NCBI GenBank assembly: GCA_023244895.1
Contig: JAHFLL010000001.1
Span: 268,009 to 332,008 of the forward strand
Length of the DNA stretch: 64,000 nt
Direction: 5' to 3'
From: Candidatus Liptonbacteria bacterium
GTDB lineage: Bacteria; Patescibacteriota; Minisyncoccia; UBA6257; 2-01-FULL-56-20
The notes under the pieces were generated by a model. The model was not told the DNA's origin. It did not search any database and worked only from the letters and a program-made list of their open reading frames with translations. Each line of letters starts with the position of its first letter. Position 1 is the stretch's first letter. Made by a program: the position numbers and the translations under genes. Positions 3,727 to 51,043 of this stretch are shown piece by piece.

Positions 3727-4083
3727 TTCGGTAATTCGTAAGCCGGATTCTGTGCCTCCGAAAAATCGGAGCGGTAATCATTTCTCTGGACCCTCGATTA
3801 CTCTCGGGTTCTTGCGGCACAAACCATTGCTTACGCAATGGAGTACGACCTTGCACCCAGTAAGGATTTAGCCGTTTCACTCCTGCTTTTTTGTCCCTAT
3901 GGCAGGATTAAGCCAACTAGCTTGGGATCGGGCTCTCTTGGCTCTTTCGGACCAAGACGTCACTGCTCGCACCTCTCGCATTACTGCGGTCCGCCGTTAG
4001 CGGATACGCTTGTCTCGCGAAGCGAGACTGGTGTCCGGACTTTCCTCTCCTTGAAAAATCAAAGAGCGATTACCTGAATTACG
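3726..4083 (-). ncRNA. rnpB: RNase P RNA (bacterial type A-like)
   Basis: Minus strand carries CR-I GGAAAGUCCGGAC (complement of 4033-4045) and CR-IV ACAGAAUCCGGCUUAC (complement of ~3737-3755). P1 pairs GUAAUUC with GAAUUAC. Ends are approximate. Confidence 0.75.
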
Positions 4084-6140: not shown

Positions 6141-7217
6141 ATGAAGGGCGTGAATTTTCCGATATTCAATATTAAATCCGGAGAAGGCTCCAGGAAGTTT
6201 AATCTGAGTAGTCCCGCAGAGCGCAAAGAATACTTCGCGCAAAAAGCCGGACCAGAGATAGAAAAGATTAGGAAGTATTTGGCCGAGGGTAAGACCTTCG
6301 TGGGATTCCTGCTGGGCAAGAAGAACTCCGGCAAGGGGACTTATTCTAAATTGATAATGGAGGCGGTAGGAGGGGACAAGATTGGTCATGTCTCTATCGG
6401 CGACATTGTACGCGACGTGCATGGCAGTTTGTCTGATCCCGCCAAAAAGAAAGAACTAGGAGAATTCCTTTCCAAGAATTATCGCGGCTTTCACACCCTT
6501 GAAGAGATAGACGATTTAATTGAGGGTCGCAGTCAGTCCACGCTCGTATCCACAGAGCTGATTATCGCCCTTTTAAAATATGAAATTAGCAAGCGTCCCA
6601 GGCAGGCCATATTTATTGATGGTTTTCCGCGCGGTTTGGATCAGATTGCGTACTCAATGTTTTTGAAAGATGTTCTGGGCTACAGAAACGATCCCGACTT
6701 TTTAGTCTTTATAGATCTTCCGACGACAATAATAGAGGCACGCATCAAGACTCGCGTTATCTGCCCTATCTGCAAGGTTCCGCGCAGCACCAAGCTTATG
6801 GCTACAAGTGAGGCCGGATATGACGCGGAAAAGAAGGAATTCTATTTGATGTGTGATAATCCGGAGTGCAATAAGGCGCGCATGGTGCCTAAAGAAGGGG
6901 ACTCTCTCGGCATAGAGCCTATTCGAGACCGCTTGGAGCTGGATGAGAAAATAATCAAGCAGCTATTGGATGTGAGCGGTTGGTCTAAGATTTATTTGCG
7001 CAACGCTCTGCCGGCGGATAAAGCTTCAGAAGTTGTGGACGATTACGAAATAACTCCAATGTACGACTATGAGCTAGACGAGGCGTCCGGCAAGGTTAAG
7101 ATAAAAGAATCGGTTTGGACCGTCGCGGACGACGAGGGAGTGACCTCTTGCAGTCTTTTACCCCCGCCGGTGGTGGTTACTTTTCTAAAGCAGATTGTGC
7201 AAGCCCTAGGACTCTAA
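6141..7217 (+). CDS. Adenylate-kinase-like NMP kinase with N-terminal extension and Cys4 LID
   Basis: P-loop GKKNSGKGTYSKL. LID-like segment RVICPICK...CDNPEC...RDRLELDE. Confidence 0.45.
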   Translation: MKGVNFPIFNIKSGEGSRKFNLSSPAERKEYFAQKAGPEIEKIRKYLAEGKTFVGFLLGKKNSGKGTYSKLIMEAVGGDKIGHVSIGDIVRDVHGSLSDPAKKKELGEFLSKNYRGFHTLEEIDDLIEGRSQSTLVSTELIIALLKYEISKRPRQAIFIDGFPRGLDQIAYSMFLKDVLGYRNDPDFLVFIDLPTTIIEARIKTRVICPICKVPRSTKLMATSEAGYDAEKKEFYLMCDNPECNKARMVPKEGDSLGIEPIRDRLELDEKIIKQLLDVSGWSKIYLRNALPADKASEVVDDYEITPMYDYELDEASGKVKIKESVWTVADDEGVTSCSLLPPPVVVTFLKQIVQALGL

Positions 7218-7964: not shown

Positions 7965-8500
7965 CAACTTGTCTAGTGAAGTCGGGTTCACTAGATATTA
8001 AACGAGAACAGACCGACACGCATCGGGCATGTGGGTCTGTTTCTTCTTGCTACTGCTCTTGCGTCAGAGTCCCAGGAGTCGTCGCACGACTCCGCGAGGA
8101 TCCCCGTCGCCTTTCTGAAAAAACTCGGTTGCCCGGACGGGGAGCTTGTCGTACTCCGCGTAAGACATCGAGCTTGTCATCAGCGTCGGTGTGTCGGGGC
8201 TCTCCGCTTGAACTACGGCGACCACCGTATCTCCGTAGGGTCCGGGCGGCATCCGGTAGTCCACGATTGCGAGCTTGAATGGCTGGCCCGCCGCTACTGC
8301 CTCACGGATCTTGGAGATGGCCTCCGTCGCCCCGCCGGCCGTGACGATCTCGATCTCCGCACCGATGGTCTCGAGAAGTGCCCTCATCCCCACGAGAGCG
8401 ATTGGCGTATCATCTACCACGAGAATGCGTCTTATCATGGTTCCTGCCCCCCCTCTCTCTTCTGGAGGCCATTATATTATCCATGTCTTTTAAGTCAATT
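7965..8500. other. GC-rich island A (about 65% GC), carries the orphan receiver gene
   Basis: Sharp compositional shift relative to flanks. Own SD and terminator (CAGACC...GGTCTG plus U-run). Confidence 0.5.
8064..8438 (-). CDS. Single-domain response regulator (CheY-like receiver), inside GC-rich island A
   Basis: Motifs LVVDD and AIVDYRMP. About 65% GC. SD-like GAGGGGGGG sits upstream of the ATG. Confidence 0.6.
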   Translation of the reverse strand: MIRRILVVDDTPIALVGMRALLETIGAEIEIVTAGGATEAISKIREAVAAGQPFKLAIVDYRMPPGPYGDTVVAVVQAESPDTPTLMTSSMSYAEYDKLPVRATEFFQKGDGDPRGVVRRLLGL

Positions 8501-8512
8501 ATAAAAAAGGAC

Positions 8513-8548
8513 TTGACATTATATTTACTACGCTATACTATAGTATAG
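8513..8548 (+). promoter_or_regulatory. Promoter plus operator module 1: TTGACA-17-TACTAT overlapping the 16 bp perfect palindrome CTATACTATAGTATAG
   Basis: TTGACA at 8513-8518, -10 at 8536-8541, palindrome at 8533-8548. The ATG at 8550 implies a leaderless mRNA. Confidence 0.6.
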
Positions 8549-8549
8549 T

Positions 8550-8900
8550 ATGCAAAATAAAAAAATGAACAAGAAAGAAAAGTGGCAGAACGAGGATAGT
8601 GAGGAGTTATTTAAAGCCGTGCTTGGTCTTAAAAATACGTCCGAAGCTAGGGCTTTTTTTAGAGATCTTTTAACCGAGAAGGAGATTTTGGAGTTCGGTC
8701 AGCGCTGGAAGGTGGCCAGGATGTTGTCCGAGAGTGTTCCTTATTCAGAAATAGGGCATAGAACCTGGATGAGTCCCAGAACCATAGCGCGTATTCAAAA
8801 ATGGCTTAAAAGCGGGAGGGGCGGTTACCGCTTAGCAATTCATCGGTTGGAGCAGAAAGCGGGTAAAAGGCCCGTTGCTGGCAAGAAAAGAAACAGATAG
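8550..8900 (+). CDS. YerC/YecD family TrpR-like DNA-binding protein
   Basis: Motifs FFRDLLTEKEILEFGQRWKVARML, PRTIARIQKWL and SGRGGYRL match the YerC/TrpR-like pattern. Confidence 0.75.
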   Translation: MQNKKMNKKEKWQNEDSEELFKAVLGLKNTSEARAFFRDLLTEKEILEFGQRWKVARMLSESVPYSEIGHRTWMSPRTIARIQKWLKSGRGGYRLAIHRLEQKAGKRPVAGKKRNR

Positions 8901-8963
8901 GCAAGGGGGTTGGGTAGAGGAATAAGTAAGCACCCCCCTTGCTTCCATTGAATATTTAAACCC

Positions 8964-8998
8964 TTGACTTTTTTATCCACCGCTATACTATAGTATAG
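8964..8998 (+). promoter_or_regulatory. Promoter plus operator module 2: TTGACT-16-TACTAT overlapping a second copy of the same 16 bp palindrome
   Basis: TTGACT at 8964-8969 and palindrome at 8983-8998. The shared 19-mer CGCTATACTATAGTATAGT matches module 1. Confidence 0.55.
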
Positions 8999-9004
8999 TG
9001 CACT

Positions 9005-9100
9005 ATCGGGGGTGACTACTGGGAGAGAGTAGAGAAGAGTAGAGGATAAGAGAGAAGAAGAGGAAGATAAGAAAGAAGAGAGAGGGTGGCGTGGGGTGGA
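9005..9100 (+). repeat. Polypurine (GA-rich) tract of about 95 nt
   Basis: Plus strand is almost entirely G/A (gagagagtagagaagagtagaggataagagagaagaagagg...). The two minus-strand ORFs across it are low-complexity artefacts. Confidence 0.7.
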
Positions 9101-9182
9101 ACACATTAGGTAGATGAGTGGGGTGAAATTGTAATGGGAGTACGAGCCGAGGGGCACTAGATTGGTTAAACAAGAGAACAAT

Positions 9183-9275
9183 ATGACTAAACAAAATATA
9201 AATTTTAATACGAGCGCCGGGCATCACAACCAACTCTTCCGAGAAGAGATTGGTTGTGGTTTTTATTTTTCTTAA
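9183..9275 (+). CDS. Candidate 30-aa leader peptide ORF running through a terminator hairpin
   Basis: ATG...TAA encodes MTKQNINFNTSAGHHNQLFREEIGCGFYFS. No SD, like host genes. Weak evidence. Confidence 0.2.
   Translation: MTKQNINFNTSAGHHNQLFREEIGCGFYFS
9225..9270 (+). terminator. Strong rho-independent terminator
   Basis: Hairpin CACAACCAACTCTTC / GAAGAGATTGGTTGTG followed by TTTTTATTTTT. Confidence 0.65.
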
Positions 9276-9310
9276 TAAGAAACAACACTCATTCTCCTCT
9301 CGGAAGTTCC

Positions 9311-9356
9311 GAGGGGTGTCGGCAAACCGAGCCCCTCACGAGAGGGGCTCTTTGAT
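9311..9356 (+). promoter_or_regulatory. Alternative-hairpin (attenuator-like) element upstream of the GCS2-like gene
   Basis: GAGGGGT (9311-9317), GCCCCTC (9331-9337) and GAGGGGC (9342-9348). The middle segment can pair with either flank. The perfect 9 bp stem GAGCCCCTC/GAGGGGCTC is followed by TTTG. Confidence 0.4.
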
Positions 9357-9382
9357 ATTGGCAGAACAAGAGGGAGGACGAT

Positions 9383-10396
9383 ATGAACGCTAAGGACCTG
9401 GTCCAGTACTTCACGCGCGGACTGAACGGGCTCTATGAGCTCGGAACAACAATCGGGATTGAGGTTGAGACCCAGTTCGTGGATCTGGGTGGTCGTGCCA
9501 TCCGGACGGAAATCGCCCAGCAGATCTTCCGGGGTTTCGTCGCTAGCGGTTGGAGGGTCGTGACGCGCAAGGGCGAGTTGCTGACGGAATTAATCTCTCC
9601 CGGGAATGATAGGTTGCTCTACGAGCTTGGCCGGCACAATTTGGAAATCAGTGCCGCGCCACGTCCCGCCGACGCGGTCGTCCCTGCCGTCCTGCGCTTA
9701 CTGGCGGAACTTTACGGCCAGGCTTGGAACTTGGGCGTTCGTCCGCTTCTTGCTCCGATCTTGGAGACGGAAGAGGACCTCCTGGTCGTGCCGGACGAAC
9801 GGGACGCGCAATGGGTAAGGACAGACGGGCGAAGCGCGCTCAATAATCTAACCAGATGCTCGGCGGTGCAGTTTACTATCGATGTGCCGCTCAAGGACGC
9901 GATACGCTGCGTCAATGTTCTGAACGAGATGAAATACTCCTTCCTGAACGAGTATCCCCAGGAGGAGTTGTGGCGGCGCTATATCAAGGAATCAGCCGCC
10001 ACCTATTCTCCCAGCCGCTACGGCGGTCCGGATCGCTTCGCCGATCTGGATGATTACTGCGCGAAACTGGCCGAGCATGGCGTGGTGCGAGACGGTAGGG
10101 TGGTGCCGTGCGAGTCGGCGGGGGAGGTGGATATCCCGCTCTTCCTGCGTTCAGTCTGGTGGTACTTCAGATTGAAGCGTTATGGTCCGAAGCTTTGCCT
10201 GGAAGTGCGCCCGTTCGCGCGGGGCAGGGATTCGAAAATCCAGGAGGATCTGGATCGGGTGCTGCAAATTCTGGGCATCTCCGGTCGGGAGCGCATGGAG
10301 CGAACGGTCGCCAGCCTTCGGGACAGTCTTGAGACACTGAAGTTCCAGGCGGTCCGCCGGCCCGTGTCTCTCGATTGGCCTTCGGGTGGTCACTAA
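9383..10396 (+). CDS. Carboxylate-amine ligase (GCS2/YbdK-like) family protein, GC-rich island B
   Basis: N-terminal TIGIEVETQFVD resembles the YbdK GIELEMQ motif. About 62% GC. Strong SD GAGGGAGGA 5 nt before the ATG. Confidence 0.4.
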   Translation: MNAKDLVQYFTRGLNGLYELGTTIGIEVETQFVDLGGRAIRTEIAQQIFRGFVASGWRVVTRKGELLTELISPGNDRLLYELGRHNLEISAAPRPADAVVPAVLRLLAELYGQAWNLGVRPLLAPILETEEDLLVVPDERDAQWVRTDGRSALNNLTRCSAVQFTIDVPLKDAIRCVNVLNEMKYSFLNEYPQEELWRRYIKESAATYSPSRYGGPDRFADLDDYCAKLAEHGVVRDGRVVPCESAGEVDIPLFLRSVWWYFRLKRYGPKLCLEVRPFARGRDSKIQEDLDRVLQILGISGRERMERTVASLRDSLETLKFQAVRRPVSLDWPSGGH

Positions 10397-11237: not shown

Positions 11238-11246
11238 AGATGTTTA

Positions 11247-11276
11247 TGCAGAGATTCTAACAGAAGGAGTCGGGAG
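11247..11276 (-). promoter_or_regulatory. sigma70-like promoter TTGAAT-17-TAGAAT for the RF gene
   Basis: Minus-strand TTGAATctcccgactccttctgtTAGAAT, followed by a 16 nt leader before the ATG. Confidence 0.5.
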
Positions 11277-11285
11277 ATTCAATCT

Positions 11286-11314
11286 GATTGACTCGTTTTT
11301 GTCTCGGAGGCATA
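11286..11314 (+). promoter_or_regulatory. Divergent promoter TTGACT-17-CATACT for the island C small peptide gene
   Basis: ttgactcgtttttgtctcggaggcatact, back-to-back with the RF promoter. Confidence 0.45.
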
Positions 11315-11337
11315 CTCTTTGTCAGGAGGGCAGGGCG

Positions 11338-11484
11338 ATGATACCTCACCCGGCGGTAGTATTCGGGCTTGATGCTGTTACGGTGCGACAGTTGATCGTG
11401 GCCGGCATCGCGGTCTGCGTCGTGTCCGTCGCCCTCGGAGTCGCGGGCGCGGCCGGACTCGTCTACCTCGTTTCTTTGATCTAG
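11338..11484 (+). CDS. 48-aa hydrophobic (single-TM) peptide, GC-rich island C
   Basis: Peptide MIPHPAVVFGLDAVTVRQLIVAGIAVCVVSVALGVAGAAGLVYLVSLI. SD CAGGAGGG 8 nt upstream. Confidence 0.4.
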   Translation: MIPHPAVVFGLDAVTVRQLIVAGIAVCVVSVALGVAGAAGLVYLVSLI

Positions 11485-11866
11485 AGCTCGGACAGGCGCG
11501 CATGGGGTATCCTACGCGCCACGGGATGTGTGTCCCATCCGGGGCGGGGATGCTCTGGTCGTGCTGTTCAGTGTTGCCTCTGGGTAAGCGGCATGCTTTG
11601 CCGCTCGGTCTTTGGGCAACATTGCTCAGTTGCGGACGACTGGAGCATCTCCGTGTTTTCACAAGTCTTGATTCGGTGGGCGGTCTTGCTACTGGCAGGC
11701 ATCACCGCTTGAGGCGTGTGACCTCAGCCGAATCATGGGGCGCGGTCTGGTGGATTACCCAGGCTAGGCAGGCGGGGCAATGAAGCCAGCCGCGCCCTCT
11801 CATAGCGACCTCCGGAACCTACGGGAACCGGGGGTTTTGACTTATTTAGGGTCATATTCCAGCCAC

Positions 11867-11894
11867 TTGACATGGGCTGTGGATATGCTATAAT
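11867..11894 (+). promoter_or_regulatory. Consensus sigma70 promoter TTGACA-16-TATAAT
   Basis: ttgacatgggctgtggatatgcTATAAT, a perfect match to both hexamers. Confidence 0.6.
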
Positions 11895-11900
11895 GCATCT

Positions 11901-12500
11901 CAAGTGGGCGAGTGGGGATTCTTGGTCGGCGTCGGCTCTACGGAGCTACTGGCCACCTTCCCTCCCGAGCCTGCGGCGCTTTCGCCGCGTCGACTCGAGC
12001 GAGCGGGGGATTTCTTGGGCAGATTCGTCTGACCCACCCCCTCGTCCACAACCCTGCCGGCGGGTTCCACCGGTAATCGTTCTTGCGGGGCACAGCGCCG
12101 TCGGCACCGCGCACCGCCCCAAGACCATACGGGCCTGACCACATGGCCCACATTGGAAGGGAGGAAGAAAGTTCCGAAACCGAGACGTAGACGTTTGTGG
12201 AGGAGGGAAGACCAAATCTACAGATGGGTCTCGGGATGGCTGATCCCCATCCGGACGCGCTTCAAGGGATAAAATCCTAGGGCTAATAACCCGAAGCGTG
12301 AAAGTAGGATCGCAGGTAAGTAGGCGACCCAAAGCAGGGCGCCACCAACGGAGGTAACCACTCGGGAGTTCGCACGACCTTCGGGCCGGCGACGAGACGA
12401 CGGGGCACGCGCGACACGCATCCGCCCCAAACCCGAGAGAGCGATACTTCCAATCGGCGCCCTGCTATAGTCAACGGCCCCAGAGCATCAAAGCTCGGGG
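11901..12500 (+). ncRNA. Candidate GC-rich structured non-coding RNA of unknown family (about 600 nt)
   Basis: Lies downstream of the consensus promoter. No plausible ORF on either strand, only overlapping Arg/Pro-rich artefacts. The 5' GGGGAUUCUUGGUCGGCGUCGG loosely resembles a tmRNA 5' end, but no tag ORF or T-arm was found. Confidence 0.25.
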
Positions 12501-12581
12501 TCGTTTGCGTTTTGGGGATATGGTTCGCCCTCCCTTTCCTTTCCTGCTAGAATAACTTTTACTGGAAGATATAAATAAGCC

Positions 12582-15175: not shown

Positions 15176-15471
15176 ATACCTCGCGTCTGATATGGGCGGT
15201 CCCTGCTGAACCGACAGCTTTTTGATAATTGAGACCCGTCATCTTTCGACAATTCAAGATGATCCATCTTGAACGGAGTCGAAAGATAAAAACAATAAAT
15301 CAGAAATAAGAGTTTTCTAGTTGTCCCAATGACAAACCCGATGAATGTACTTTACAGACATCGGTTCCGATCACGGTTTTTCACGCAAGTGAACTTTGCG
15401 AATTTGCATGGTTACTCCATTTGCAAATTCGCGTAGTCATTTTATCTTCGGATAAAATGGGTCGCGATCTT

Positions 15472-17009
<1,538 letters not shown>

Positions 17010-17984: not shown

Positions 17985-18067
17985 GCGCGGGTGGCGAAAT
18001 GGCAGACGCACTACCTTGAGGTGGTAGCGCTCGTAAGGGCGTGGAGGTTCGAATCCTCTCCCGCGCA
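17985..18067 (+). tRNA. tRNA-Leu (anticodon GAG), type II with a long variable arm
   Basis: Acceptor GCGCGGG/CCCGCGC, anticodon loop TTGAGGT, T-arm GGAGGTTCGAATCCTCT. Confidence 0.85.
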
Positions 18068-49480: not shown

Positions 49481-51043
49481 TTATTCCGGCGAGCTTAAGA
49501 TTATTTCTCCTTCCGTGAGCCCGCTGACTATTTCCACGTTTCCGTCCGAACCACGCAGGCCGGTCACAACCTCTCGCTCCTGCCCGGTTATCTGTTCGGC
49601 AACGTAAATCATAACTATTTTTTTGCCATCCGAAGTTTTGACCGAGCGTTGGGGGATAGAAATGACCCCGCTCTTTTTCTGGGTCATGATGTCCAGATTG
49701 GCGGTCATGCCCGGCTTGGCCTGTTCGTATTTTTTGTCAAAGAGAACTTTTGTTTTATAAGTGGCCACCCCTTCGATAACGGTTTCGGATGGGTCAATGC
49801 TGGCCACCTTGCCGGCAAACTTAACGTCTTCTCCGTAAGCATCCAGAGTAATCACTGCCGTGTCTCCTATCTTTACCTTCGCAATGTCCACCTCCGGGAT
49901 GTTGGACTCTATCAGCAAACTGCCCGCGATTAGCGAGACTAGGTTTACGTTGGTCGCGACTATGGCTCCTTCTTTGGCGTCCTGCCTGGTAATCACTCCG
50001 GATTGGGGCGCCCGCAGAACAGTTTTGGCCAACTGGGCTTGTATTAGCTCCACGTTAGCCCTGGCCTGAGCGACTTGCGCCTCCTGCACTTTTATTTCTT
50101 CCGGATCGCTGCCGGATAGCATTTTGTTTAGCTCGTCGTTTGTTCTCACAACCACTAATTCTTGAGATGCAAGGGTGTCTATTCGGGTGTTTATCGCGGA
50201 GAGGGCGCTAGTCACATTGGTCCGAGCAGTATTGATGCTGGTTCTGTATTCGCTTATAGTGGCACCGCTTATCCCAGACGCATCTGCCACCGCTGAATTT
50301 ATAACAGCCAGAGCGCCGCGTATAACCTCCAAATGTTTTTGGGAGGTCACAAGAATCGGCTTGTCTTTCTCGGTTGCGGTACTGGTTTTATCAAATTGAT
50401 TTAGCTCTAGAAGCCAGGTGCGCAACTCCGCCCCCGCGGCATAGCGCTCTCTTTCCGCGTCATTCTTGACCTGAGAAGACAATGTTTGAAATGCCAGAGC
50501 AACATTTGAATCCTCATCATTGCTAAAGAGGGAGTCAATCTGCTTGCGCATGGCATCGTCAGCTTTAATATAAGCATCATGAATAACGTCGCTGATGCCA
50601 CGGTAGTAATTGGTCAGATCTTGCTCGGCTTTAGCCAGGTCGGTTTTTTTAGCCTGAACATCTTCTGCTCTGCTTCCGCGTTTTAACTCATCTAGCTTCG
50701 CGACTTGCGCGTCCACGCTGGCCTCCGCCTGACTAAGCTGAGCTTGAAGTTCAGAGGTGTCAAGCGTCACTAAGGCTTGTCCCGCACCAACCCTGTCTCC
50801 GACTTTAACGTATGTATTCCTTACCCTACCGCCCCGCTCAAAGGAGAGATCGATATCTTGATTAGGAGTAACTTTACCGGTTACGGAAACTTCTTGAACT
50901 ATATCGCCCCGCTCAATCTTAATGGTCGCGGGACCACTTTTCGGTTTACCCCCAAAAGAGAACCAGGCAACAGCAATTATGACTAGTACTAAAAGGATAT
51001 AGGACTTCTTTCTGTTTTTTAGATGATCAATTATGTTTTTCAT
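49481..51043 (-). CDS. HlyD/MacA-family periplasmic adaptor subunit
   Basis: N-terminal TM, long coiled coil, beta-barrel/lipoyl-like segments. Adjacent to the ABC pair. Confidence 0.7.
   Translation of the reverse strand: MKNIIDHLKNRKKSYILLVLVIIAVAWFSFGGKPKSGPATIKIERGDIVQEVSVTGKVTPNQDIDLSFERGGRVRNTYVKVGDRVGAGQALVTLDTSELQAQLSQAEASVDAQVAKLDELKRGSRAEDVQAKKTDLAKAEQDLTNYYRGISDVIHDAYIKADDAMRKQIDSLFSNDEDSNVALAFQTLSSQVKNDAERERYAAGAELRTWLLELNQFDKTSTATEKDKPILVTSQKHLEVIRGALAVINSAVADASGISGATISEYRTSINTARTNVTSALSAINTRIDTLASQELVVVRTNDELNKMLSGSDPEEIKVQEAQVAQARANVELIQAQLAKTVLRAPQSGVITRQDAKEGAIVATNVNLVSLIAGSLLIESNIPEVDIAKVKIGDTAVITLDAYGEDVKFAGKVASIDPSETVIEGVATYKTKVLFDKKYEQAKPGMTANLDIMTQKKSGVISIPQRSVKTSDGKKIVMIYVAEQITGQEREVVTGLRGSDGNVEIVSGLTEGEIILSSPE

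Follow-up and report, generated by a model that had tools for sequence, protein, structure and literature searches.

A 64,000-nucleotide (nt) stretch of the ultrasmall genome of Candidatus Liptonbacteria bacterium, a member of the Patescibacteria (contig JAHFLL010000001.1, positions 268,009 to 332,008; hereafter the window), carries a short gene for a TrpR-like repressor that is bracketed by two copies of a perfect palindrome and followed by a small leader open reading frame (ORF) with two adjacent histidine codons and by a gene for a ligase-like protein (Table 1). Here we report a comparative analysis of this locus, which points to a HisR-type repressor with two operators and to a leader RNA that may respond to histidine.

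Table 1 Features of the hisR locus and its downstream transcript in the window
Feature	Position	Strand	Basis or remark
Promoter-like P1 (TTGACA-17-TACTAT) for hisR/yerC	8513..8541	+	Promoter scan, 10/12 matches
Operator O1	8531..8550	.	Palindrome core 8533–8548; overlaps −10, ends at hisR ATG
hisR (yerC/yecD family, TrpR-like repressor)	8550..8900	+	116 amino acids (aa); recognition helix MSPRTIARIQ
GC-rich hairpin directly 3′ of hisR stop, terminator-like, weak T tail	8901..8942	+	Inverted repeat; putative function
Promoter-like P2 (TTGACT-16-TACTAT)	8964..8991	+	Promoter scan; −35 to −10 block kept in window, L001, L030
Operator O2, second HisR-type box	8981..9000	.	Palindrome core 8983–8998
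C-free purine-rich tract, 5′ part of P2 transcript	9020..9089	+	Read from sequence
Leader ORF, 30 codons (MTKQNINFNTSAGHHNQLFREEIGCGFYFS)	9183..9275	+	Tandem His codons CAT CAC at 9222–9227
Hairpin P1 (segment 1 : segment 2), then TTTTTATTTTT	9223..9260	+	Second His codon in 5′ base
Alternative long-range helix 2:3	9236..9306	+	Segment 2 (9236–9262) with segment 3 (9280–9306); inverted repeat
Hairpin 3′:4 (CCTCTCGGAAGTTCCGAGGGG)	9296..9316	+	Lost when helix 2:3 forms
Hairpin GAGCCCCTC-ACGA-GAGGGGCTC then TTTGATATT, terminator-like	9329..9350	+	Terminator scan
Target gene, predicted 337-aa protein of glutamate–cysteine ligase (GCL)/glutamine synthetase (GS) fold	9383..10396	+	Shine–Dalgarno (SD) sequence GAGGGAGGA at 9370–9378

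The repressor gene and its two palindromes

The repressor scores above the curated cut-offs of both Pfam Trp_repressor (PF01371; 63.7 bits, cut-off 27) and NCBIfam TIGR02531 yecD_yerC (67.5 bits, cut-off 42.2), which bears out an earlier reading made from the letters alone (the sequence-only reading) that a YerC/TrpR-like regulator lies between two promoter–palindrome modules. A search of the Protein Data Bank (PDB) matched three ‘putative Trp repressor’ entries (3frw, 4e-17; 3g1c, E 1.2e-15), and the nearest of its 319 homologues come from Patescibacteria. Entry 3G1C is the HisR protein of E. eligens (PMC9413887), and an alignment to it shows that the effector-side helix is well kept in the window protein. 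The family itself, which the sequence-only reading took to be poorly characterised, is described: B. subtilis yerC is HisR, a histidine repressor of the TrpR family (Ashniev et al., BMC Genomics 2022, PMC9413887), and published work covers its operator consensus, its autoregulation and its co-repression by histidine, so that a defined operator is not the new handle it was proposed to be. The HisR operator, found in Firmicutes, Actinobacteria and Synergistetes, is a 20-bp palindrome of consensus cacTTTAnnnnnnTAAAgtg, also written cacTTTA-N6-TAAAgtg, and has been validated in vitro; around half of hisR genes have their own site upstream, indicating autoregulation, and the HisR protein of R. gnavus binds its operator in vitro, stimulated by L-histidine, a co-repressor role shown for R. 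gnavus only (PMC9413887). Patescibacteria is a phylum outside the 2022 survey (PMC9413887), and our literature search found no paper joining HisR with Patescibacteria. Judged by its profile and structure-database matches, the window gene belongs to the HisR (YerC/YecD) family of TrpR-like histidine repressors, here in a Patescibacteria genome, and we refer to it as hisR.

The sequence CTATACTATAGTATAG forms a perfect 16-nt palindrome at 8533–8548 and again at 8983–8998, the sole exact copies in the window, and both sites lie within a common 19-mer, CGCTATACTATAGTATAGT (8531–8549 and 8981–8999). Allowing up to three mismatches over the 64 kb added two matches, both self-overlaps of the first copy; the chance expectation for all matches at this setting is 0.13, and none of 100 shuffles reached four. 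Each copy overlaps the second hexamer (−10) of its promoter-like site, and the promoter scan found seven such sites in the region where 1.9 were expected. The sequence, the repeat search and the promoter scan thus agree with the sequence-only reading on the two identical palindromes, the shared 19-mer and the −10 overlap of both promoters.

In the 20-bp register of HisR, the window operator reads cgCTATA-ctatag-TATAGta (cgCTATActatagTATAGta) and has the same 5-6-5 architecture as the published box, from which it differs by one symmetric T-to-A change in each half-site (CTTTA to CTATA). A search of the window for CTATA-N6-TATAG with at most one mismatch returned the two sites and one chance-level match within a 520-aa ORF at 50244; the canonical CTTTA-N6-TAAAG gave chance-level matches only. 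The hisR start codon at 8550 directly follows the 18-bp box, and a leaderless or near-leaderless hisR mRNA is therefore plausible from the arrangement of the two.

Comparison with closely related loci separates the parts of these modules that are held constant from those that drift. The half-sites of O1, CTATAC and GTATAG, are invariant in the window and in loci L001, L030 and L023, and the four central nucleotides vary (TATA, TCTG, CATA and TCTA). Likewise, the −35 element of P1, TTGACAT, is identical in four related loci and its spacer drifts. Invariant half-sites and −35 element together with a drifting centre and spacer are the pattern expected of an N6-spaced operator. The O2 16-mer is kept at the same position in L001 and L030, where the P2/O2 block is nearly invariant.

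Probable operators across Patescibacteria hisR loci

To define where such boxes occur, we assembled 66 non-redundant hisR loci (labelled L001 and so on) from exact-protein look-ups, Genome Taxonomy Database (GTDB) genomes and Joint Genome Institute (JGI) metagenomes, all on Patescibacteria-type contigs. The closer loci keep the gene order aspS, adk-like, NUDIX, hisR, unknown gene, prfB. A box was defined as C-T-[T/A]-T-[A/C]-N6-inverse, which covers the canonical form and its CTATA and CTTTC variants. By this definition a box ends 0–3 nt before the hisR start at 63 of the 66 loci, a second one lies 23–32 bp upstream, over the −35 element, at 33, and a box occurs within 125 nt after the hisR stop at 22. 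Exact boxes, mostly canonical, number 119 in the 17.5 kb flanking hisR and three in the other 328.5 kb, and two of those three lie further downstream of hisR in L036. The motif is thus not scattered at these loci; scattering over random positions is what the sequence-only reading had named as telling against its proposal.

Copies of the box within one genome change together: CTATACTATAGTATAG occurs twice in the window, CTTTCCTTAAGGAAAG twice in L005 and ACTTTACTAAACTAAAG twice in L007/L024. The box type moreover tracks the start of the recognition helix. Most loci combine the helix MSSTTIARIQ with ACTTTA-N6-TAAAGT; the helix MS(P/M)RTIARIQ of the window, L001/L004, L030, L023, L037, L031 and L032 goes with ACTATA-N6-TATAGT or TATA/TAAA hybrids; and the helix MSSKTIARIQ of L005, L053, L055, L063 and L009-type loci goes with ACTTTC-N6-GAAAGT or TTTC/TAAA hybrids, with L035 as the one exception. 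In the 3G1C alignment, the variable helix residues fall at TrpR Ile79 and Ala80, which are listed among the DNA-contacting positions (PMC9413887). The series SSTT–TTTA, SPRT–TATA and SSKT–TTTC could serve as a natural specificity set for reading the recognition code of TrpR-family proteins.

Because the boxes are confined to the flanks of hisR, their half-sites are invariant, their copies co-vary and their type tracks the helix, we read the palindromes as the probable cognate operators of HisR. This comparative evidence favours the assignment, already made in the sequence-only reading, of one palindrome to autoregulation and of the other to the downstream leader and ligase-like gene. HisR would accordingly be seen to extend, on sequence evidence, to a large and poorly studied phylum with a variant half-site; the operator and autoregulation as such are known biology. 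What had looked like an orphan regulator with a mystery palindrome thereby becomes part of a well-understood system, with a likely ligand (histidine), an operator rule and an autoregulatory logic.

Two further observations concern the boxes of relatives. At 18 loci (L008, L009, L018, L041–L061 and others), a second HisR box stands just upstream of a SLOG cluster-4 (PF18306) gene that directly follows hisR; these loci have no His-His element, and the gene represents a different, unexplained HisR target. L085 encodes a distant TrpR-family homologue (38% identity) that lies between two identical copies of another palindrome, TCATACACTAGTGTATGA. These 18-mers start 104 nt upstream and 408 nt downstream of the first base of the match (L085 position 3001), and their sequence is nearer to the TrpR-type ACTAG core, giving the same architecture with another specificity.

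A leader RNA with tandem histidine codons

The region between hisR and the ligase-like gene contains both variable and conserved parts. The hairpin directly behind hisR (−20.4 kcal/mol, z −1.8) is partly kept in L001 and absent in L030. The ‘polypurine leader’ of the sequence-only reading is present as a C-free tract, but L001 and L030 lack around 40–50 nt of it, and by this comparison it is a non-conserved, largely window-specific low-complexity expansion for which no specific role is supported; the conserved core is instead the His-His ORF with its RNA switch. Both the ATG and the two histidine codons of this ORF are kept in L001 and L030.

The leader can fold in mutually exclusive ways. Hairpin P1 (−21.7 kcal/mol, z −4.7) is paired in 81.9% of cells across 12 leaders, against at most 60.5% in slid controls, and four of its pairs have changed on both sides. 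Helix 2:3 (−29.0 kcal/mol, z −5.8) excludes both hairpin P1 and the hairpin at 9296–9316, and is the consensus that RNAalifold returns for the 12 aligned leaders, with 92.4% of cells paired against at most 58% in slid controls; eight of its 23 pairs are compensatory, and none of 500 shuffles reached the observed score. When a ribosome mask was placed on the histidine codons (9222–9227), the full helix 2:3 formed and the 9296–9316 hairpin disappeared. The equivalent of this last hairpin bears a T-run in sister clades (L005, L012, L036 and L056), which makes it a terminator there. The existence of an RNA switch in the window leader is well supported by these foldings and covariations, and its read-out in the window clade could be termination, translation or RNA stability. 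No Rfam family accounts for it: searches at gathering scores over the whole window and at E ≤10 over 8400–9500 gave no meaningful leader family, only microRNA models and His_leader (RF00514), which matched the window leader at 16.9 bits (gathering 49; E 5.9), and no T-box match.

Relatives show the same element in two arrangements. In-frame HH or HHH precedes the hairpin at 41 of the 66 loci, in 21 cases within a short ORF after hisR and in 20 within the C-terminal tail of HisR itself; examples of such tails, each ending at the stop codon, are ..AHHPISSGKRSAVV in L023, ..THHHAHTFR in L029 and ..AHHTSLT in L016. All CAYCAY found in tails are in the hisR frame. In L023, L031 and L032, RNA homologous to the window leader has a 1-nt indel after HH and forms the tail of HisR; the peptide after HH then reads SSGKRSAVV (L023 type) as opposed to LFREEIGCG in the window, and the RNA pairing is kept. 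This change of frame with preserved pairing suggests that the histidine codons and the RNA structure are conserved, not the peptide product. A hairpin with a T-run lies 41–93 nt downstream in 31 of 40 loci with the HH element. Placing a 30-nt ribosome footprint on the histidine codons removed the terminator stem from the minimum-free-energy fold in 25 of these 31; with the footprint on the leader stop codon, the stem was present in those 25. Such behaviour matches the logic of leader-peptide attenuation.

In relatives, the HH element is followed by genes that include those for histidinol dehydrogenase (HisD), two types of HisG, a HutH-like lyase, an M20 peptidase and a nucleoside hydrolase, and the HisD, HisG and HutH-like genes tie the module to histidine. 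The M20 peptidases are the targets in L014 and L067, and the gene behind the element in L070 resembles the AstE/AspA family by eye. An AstE/AspA-type deacylase gene is also found convergent to the ligase-like gene in L087 (3415–4239) and L089 (3414–4238). The AstE/AspA-type and M20 genes may be hints of histidine release from conjugates.

Relative to L023, the window has around 320 nt extra between the hisR body and the HH element, and this insert carries the terminator-like hairpin, the second promoter with its operator, the purine tract and a new start codon. The window arrangement thus looks like a derived state. A broader proposal, which we hold tentatively and rate a little below even odds, is that hisR and the histidine attenuator form one fused module across Patescibacteria, in which the HisR tail with its HH and stop codon serves as the leader peptide, and its translation decides what becomes of the transcript running into the next gene; the window clade would have secondarily split this module into two operator-controlled transcripts, and the GCL/GS-fold enzyme, the most conserved cargo, would be induced by histidine starvation. 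If so, the enzyme could serve histidine salvage or conjugation in organisms from which amino-acid biosynthesis is largely missing.

Two side observations concern the sequence of the leader. The motif AGATTGGTT occurs twice (9159–9167 and 9248–9256); its upstream copy, kept in L001 as AGATTGATT, could replace segment 2 in pairing with segment 1 (AACCAACT), a further alternative 5′ of the leader ORF start. The sequences CCCCCCTCTCTCTTCT (8448–8463) and AGAAGAGAGAGGGTGG (9074–9089) are 94% complementary; on the minus strand, CCCCCCTCTCTCTTCT is the purine-rich 5′ leader and SD sequence of a response-regulator gene. 5′ leaders that are rich in purines and poor in C may be a common trait of this organism, and similar ones occur in L026/L036 and, ahead of hisR, in L005.

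The ligase-like target gene

The gene behind the leader was described as GCS2-like in the sequence-only reading, a description that holds for the fold but is not matched by sequence searches, which found no Pfam family at E ≤0.01 (PF04107 was not reached) and no NCBIfam, PDB sequence or profile match. An AlphaFold2 model built from a 30-sequence alignment has a mean pLDDT of 91, and its best Foldseek match in the PDB is plant glutamate–cysteine ligase (2gwc; E 4e-11, TM 0.64), with further matches to E. coli GCL, YbdK (1r8g/1tt4) and glutamine synthetases. The family has invariant Glu and Arg columns, including E27, E29, E88, E274 and R276. By this predicted structure, the protein has the GCL/GS fold. 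It belongs to a large family, widespread in Patescibacteria as ‘hypothetical proteins’ of around 295 aa, three homologues of which carry a precomputed PF04107 assignment.

Distant homologues (47–49% identity) are found in the same setting. All three lie 67–110 nt after a Trp_repressor gene, in unrelated contexts, and each of these repressor genes is preceded by a canonical HisR box, encodes a ..KLHHH.. or ..KLHHNN.. tail and comes with a terminator. This shared order in three of three cases indicates that the unit of hisR, HH element and ligase-like gene is widespread. The enzyme family is probably histidine-regulated, and we infer a possible role in histidine salvage; this probable regulation offers a starting hypothesis for its biochemistry. 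The response-regulator gene and the ligase-like gene have G+C contents of 62% and 58–61%, respectively, compared with around 40–46% for hisR and its neighbours.

Proposed two-level control by histidine and its alternatives

We propose that the locus encodes a HisR-type autoregulated repressor with two operators, and that the second promoter feeds the His-codon leader and the ligase-fold gene, placing the latter under histidine control at two levels. On the comparative evidence above we put the probability of this reading at about 0.78. The operators overlap the −10 or the start of sigma-70-like promoters, so bound repressor would occlude RNA polymerase; if it behaves like characterised HisR, the repressor would need L-histidine to bind. 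O1 acting on P1 would provide autoregulation of hisR. O2 acting on P2 would control a separate transcript comprising the purine-rich 5′ stretch, the His-His leader ORF and the ligase-like gene. On this transcript, scarce His-tRNA would stall the ribosome on the histidine codons and free segment 2, which would then pair with segment 3 and remove the 3:4 hairpin, following the logic of a leader-peptide attenuator. Low histidine would in this way turn on the ligase-like gene at two levels, as TrpR and trpL do for the E. coli trp operon. The data point to a real, non-random HisR system in which the coupling of repressor and attenuator is unusual and goes beyond what we found described, as does the target family. 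Coupling of the repressor gene to a His-codon attenuator, which in many genomes appears to lie within a single ORF, is not reported in the HisR survey (PMC9413887).

Several observations weigh against this proposal. The window half-site deviates at one position from all published HisR consensuses. The helix groups are also clades, and the helix–operator correlation may reflect only two or three independent events. In the leader, two histidine codons are few compared with the 3–7 of described his leaders, the stop codon lies 3′ of the T-run of hairpin P1, and no output can clearly be assigned to the switch in the window clade. The 9296–9316 hairpin there lacks a T-run; the 9329–9350 hairpin is not supported as a regulated terminator, as it persists under all folding masks; and SD sequestration is not supported by partition-function folding, which predicts SD accessibilities of 0.52, 0.49 and 0.52. 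We know of no link between the ligase-like target enzyme and histidine, and the window yielded no gene for histidine biosynthesis or transport.

The most serious alternative accepts a YerC/HisR-family protein with cognate operators and holds that its effector here is not histidine, the His-His ORF being no sensor. The target is indeed an uncharacterised ligase-fold enzyme and not a his or hut gene product, no his genes were seen in the 64 kb, Patescibacteria are generally poor in amino-acid biosynthesis, and the 18 relatives with a second box before the SLOG cluster-4 gene lack an HH element. We nevertheless consider it unlikely, given the in-frame HH beside hisR at 41 of 66 loci, the HisD, HisG and HutH-like genes directly behind hisR and HH in several relatives, and the well-conserved effector-side helix shared with E. 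eligens HisR. A related doubt concerns the small ORF, which might encode a functional peptide such as a precursor modified by the adjacent enzyme: it lies directly upstream of an ATP-dependent ligase-fold enzyme, and HH..EEI.CG is common to the window, L001, L030, L005, L035 and L012. But L023, L031 and L032 read the homologous RNA in the other frame (..AHHPISSGKRSAVV) as a HisR tail, only HH and base pairing are conserved across clades, and the same element precedes unrelated genes (HisD, HisG, HutH-like, M20 peptidase), which makes a functional peptide highly improbable; the specific candidate of a precursor of a ribosomally synthesised and post-translationally modified peptide (RiPP) was rejected on the frame change in those three loci.

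The palindromes themselves might have a simpler origin. Both coincide with −10 regions, and AT-rich −10 sequences are intrinsically near-palindromic (TATACT and TATAGT are nearly self-complementary), so that they could be a duplicated strong promoter core to which no repressor binds. This seems very unlikely, because relatives have palindromes in the same place with a different sequence that extends beyond the −10 (ACTTTA-N6-TAAAGT, ACTTTC-N6-GAAAGT), a second copy is found at half of the loci, either over the −35 or behind the stop codon, the motif is that of the validated HisR box, and other promoter-like sites of the region, such as 8498–8471 on the minus strand, lack it. Least credible of all is that the repeats act as RNA hairpins or mark the ends of a mobile or repeat element. 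A 23-nt RNA with the palindrome can fold (−7.7 kcal/mol), but transcription is predicted to start within the palindrome, which would leave each promoter transcribing only half of its own copy; the 64 kb moreover contains two copies only, their positions are syntenic across loci, and there are no target-site duplications or transposase. Autoregulated HisR acting with a histidine-sensing leader is therefore the reading we prefer. The divergent response regulator (8064–8438, minus strand) was considered as an alternative binder of the palindromes and rejected, as it consists of a receiver domain only and its gene is absent from L001, which keeps both boxes.

Other features of the window

The same response-regulator gene is present in L023 but missing at the syntenic L001 locus, a pattern suggestive of insertion or loss beside hisR. 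Upstream, the adenylate-kinase-like protein (6141–7217) is unusually long at 358 aa and scores 61.5 bits against the NCBIfam adk cut-off of 168; the synteny of its gene with aspS and hisR is kept in relatives. An RNase P RNA (3727–4082) is just above the gathering score, at 103 bits against 100. A segment of around 1.3 kb (11238–12580) that separates the prfB-like gene from a NUDIX-like ORF has 57–60% G+C compared with around 45% in neighbouring genes; none of its ORFs is of convincing length, and Rfam gave no match at E ≤1. The 16S rRNA gene is complete (15470–17009), with no 23S or 5S match in the 64 kb and a tRNA-Leu at 17985 as the next RNA gene, which points to an unlinked rRNA operon.

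Comparison with known systems

The target protein shares its predicted fold and its invariant Glu/Arg columns with the GCL/YbdK (GCS2)/GS superfamily. It differs from that superfamily in falling below all sequence thresholds and in belonging to a family that is shorter, with around 295 aa in most members. The leader resembles the proteobacterial His leader (RF00514) and Firmicutes his attenuators in having a consecutive-His ORF, mutually exclusive helices and, in most relatives, a terminator; in contrast to these systems, it has 2–3 histidine codons instead of 3–7, and the window clade has no clear terminator after the switch.

With the HisR regulon (PMC9413887), the window system has in common the PF01371/TIGR02531 family, the 20-bp 5-6-5 operator, the placement of an operator before hisR and the restriction to one or a few nearby targets, and its Patescibacteria relatives carry the canonical cTTTA-N6-TAAAg box of that regulon. 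The window clade departs from it in combining cTATA-N6-TATAg with an SPRT helix, compared with the published ST(A/T)T helix, and in targeting a GCL/GS-fold enzyme; the published targets are the his operon, hisXYZ and yuiF (PMC9413887). HisR and a His-codon leader moreover occur together here, whereas Firmicutes attenuators are reported only in lineages without HisR (PMC9413887).

TrpR proper recognizes a different operator, TGTACTnGTnnACnAGTACA, with GNACT half-sites 8 bp apart, compared with the CTATA half-sites 6 bp apart in the window. The closest analogue in overall logic is the E. coli trp system of TrpR and trpL, in which an autoregulated TrpR-family repressor likewise acts at a promoter-overlapping operator, and the regulated gene is likewise preceded by alternative hairpins and by a leader peptide that has two regulatory codons in tandem. 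In contrast to trp, however, the amino acid here would be histidine, and the repressor gene directly precedes the leader and, in many relatives, supplies the leader peptide as its own C-terminal tail.

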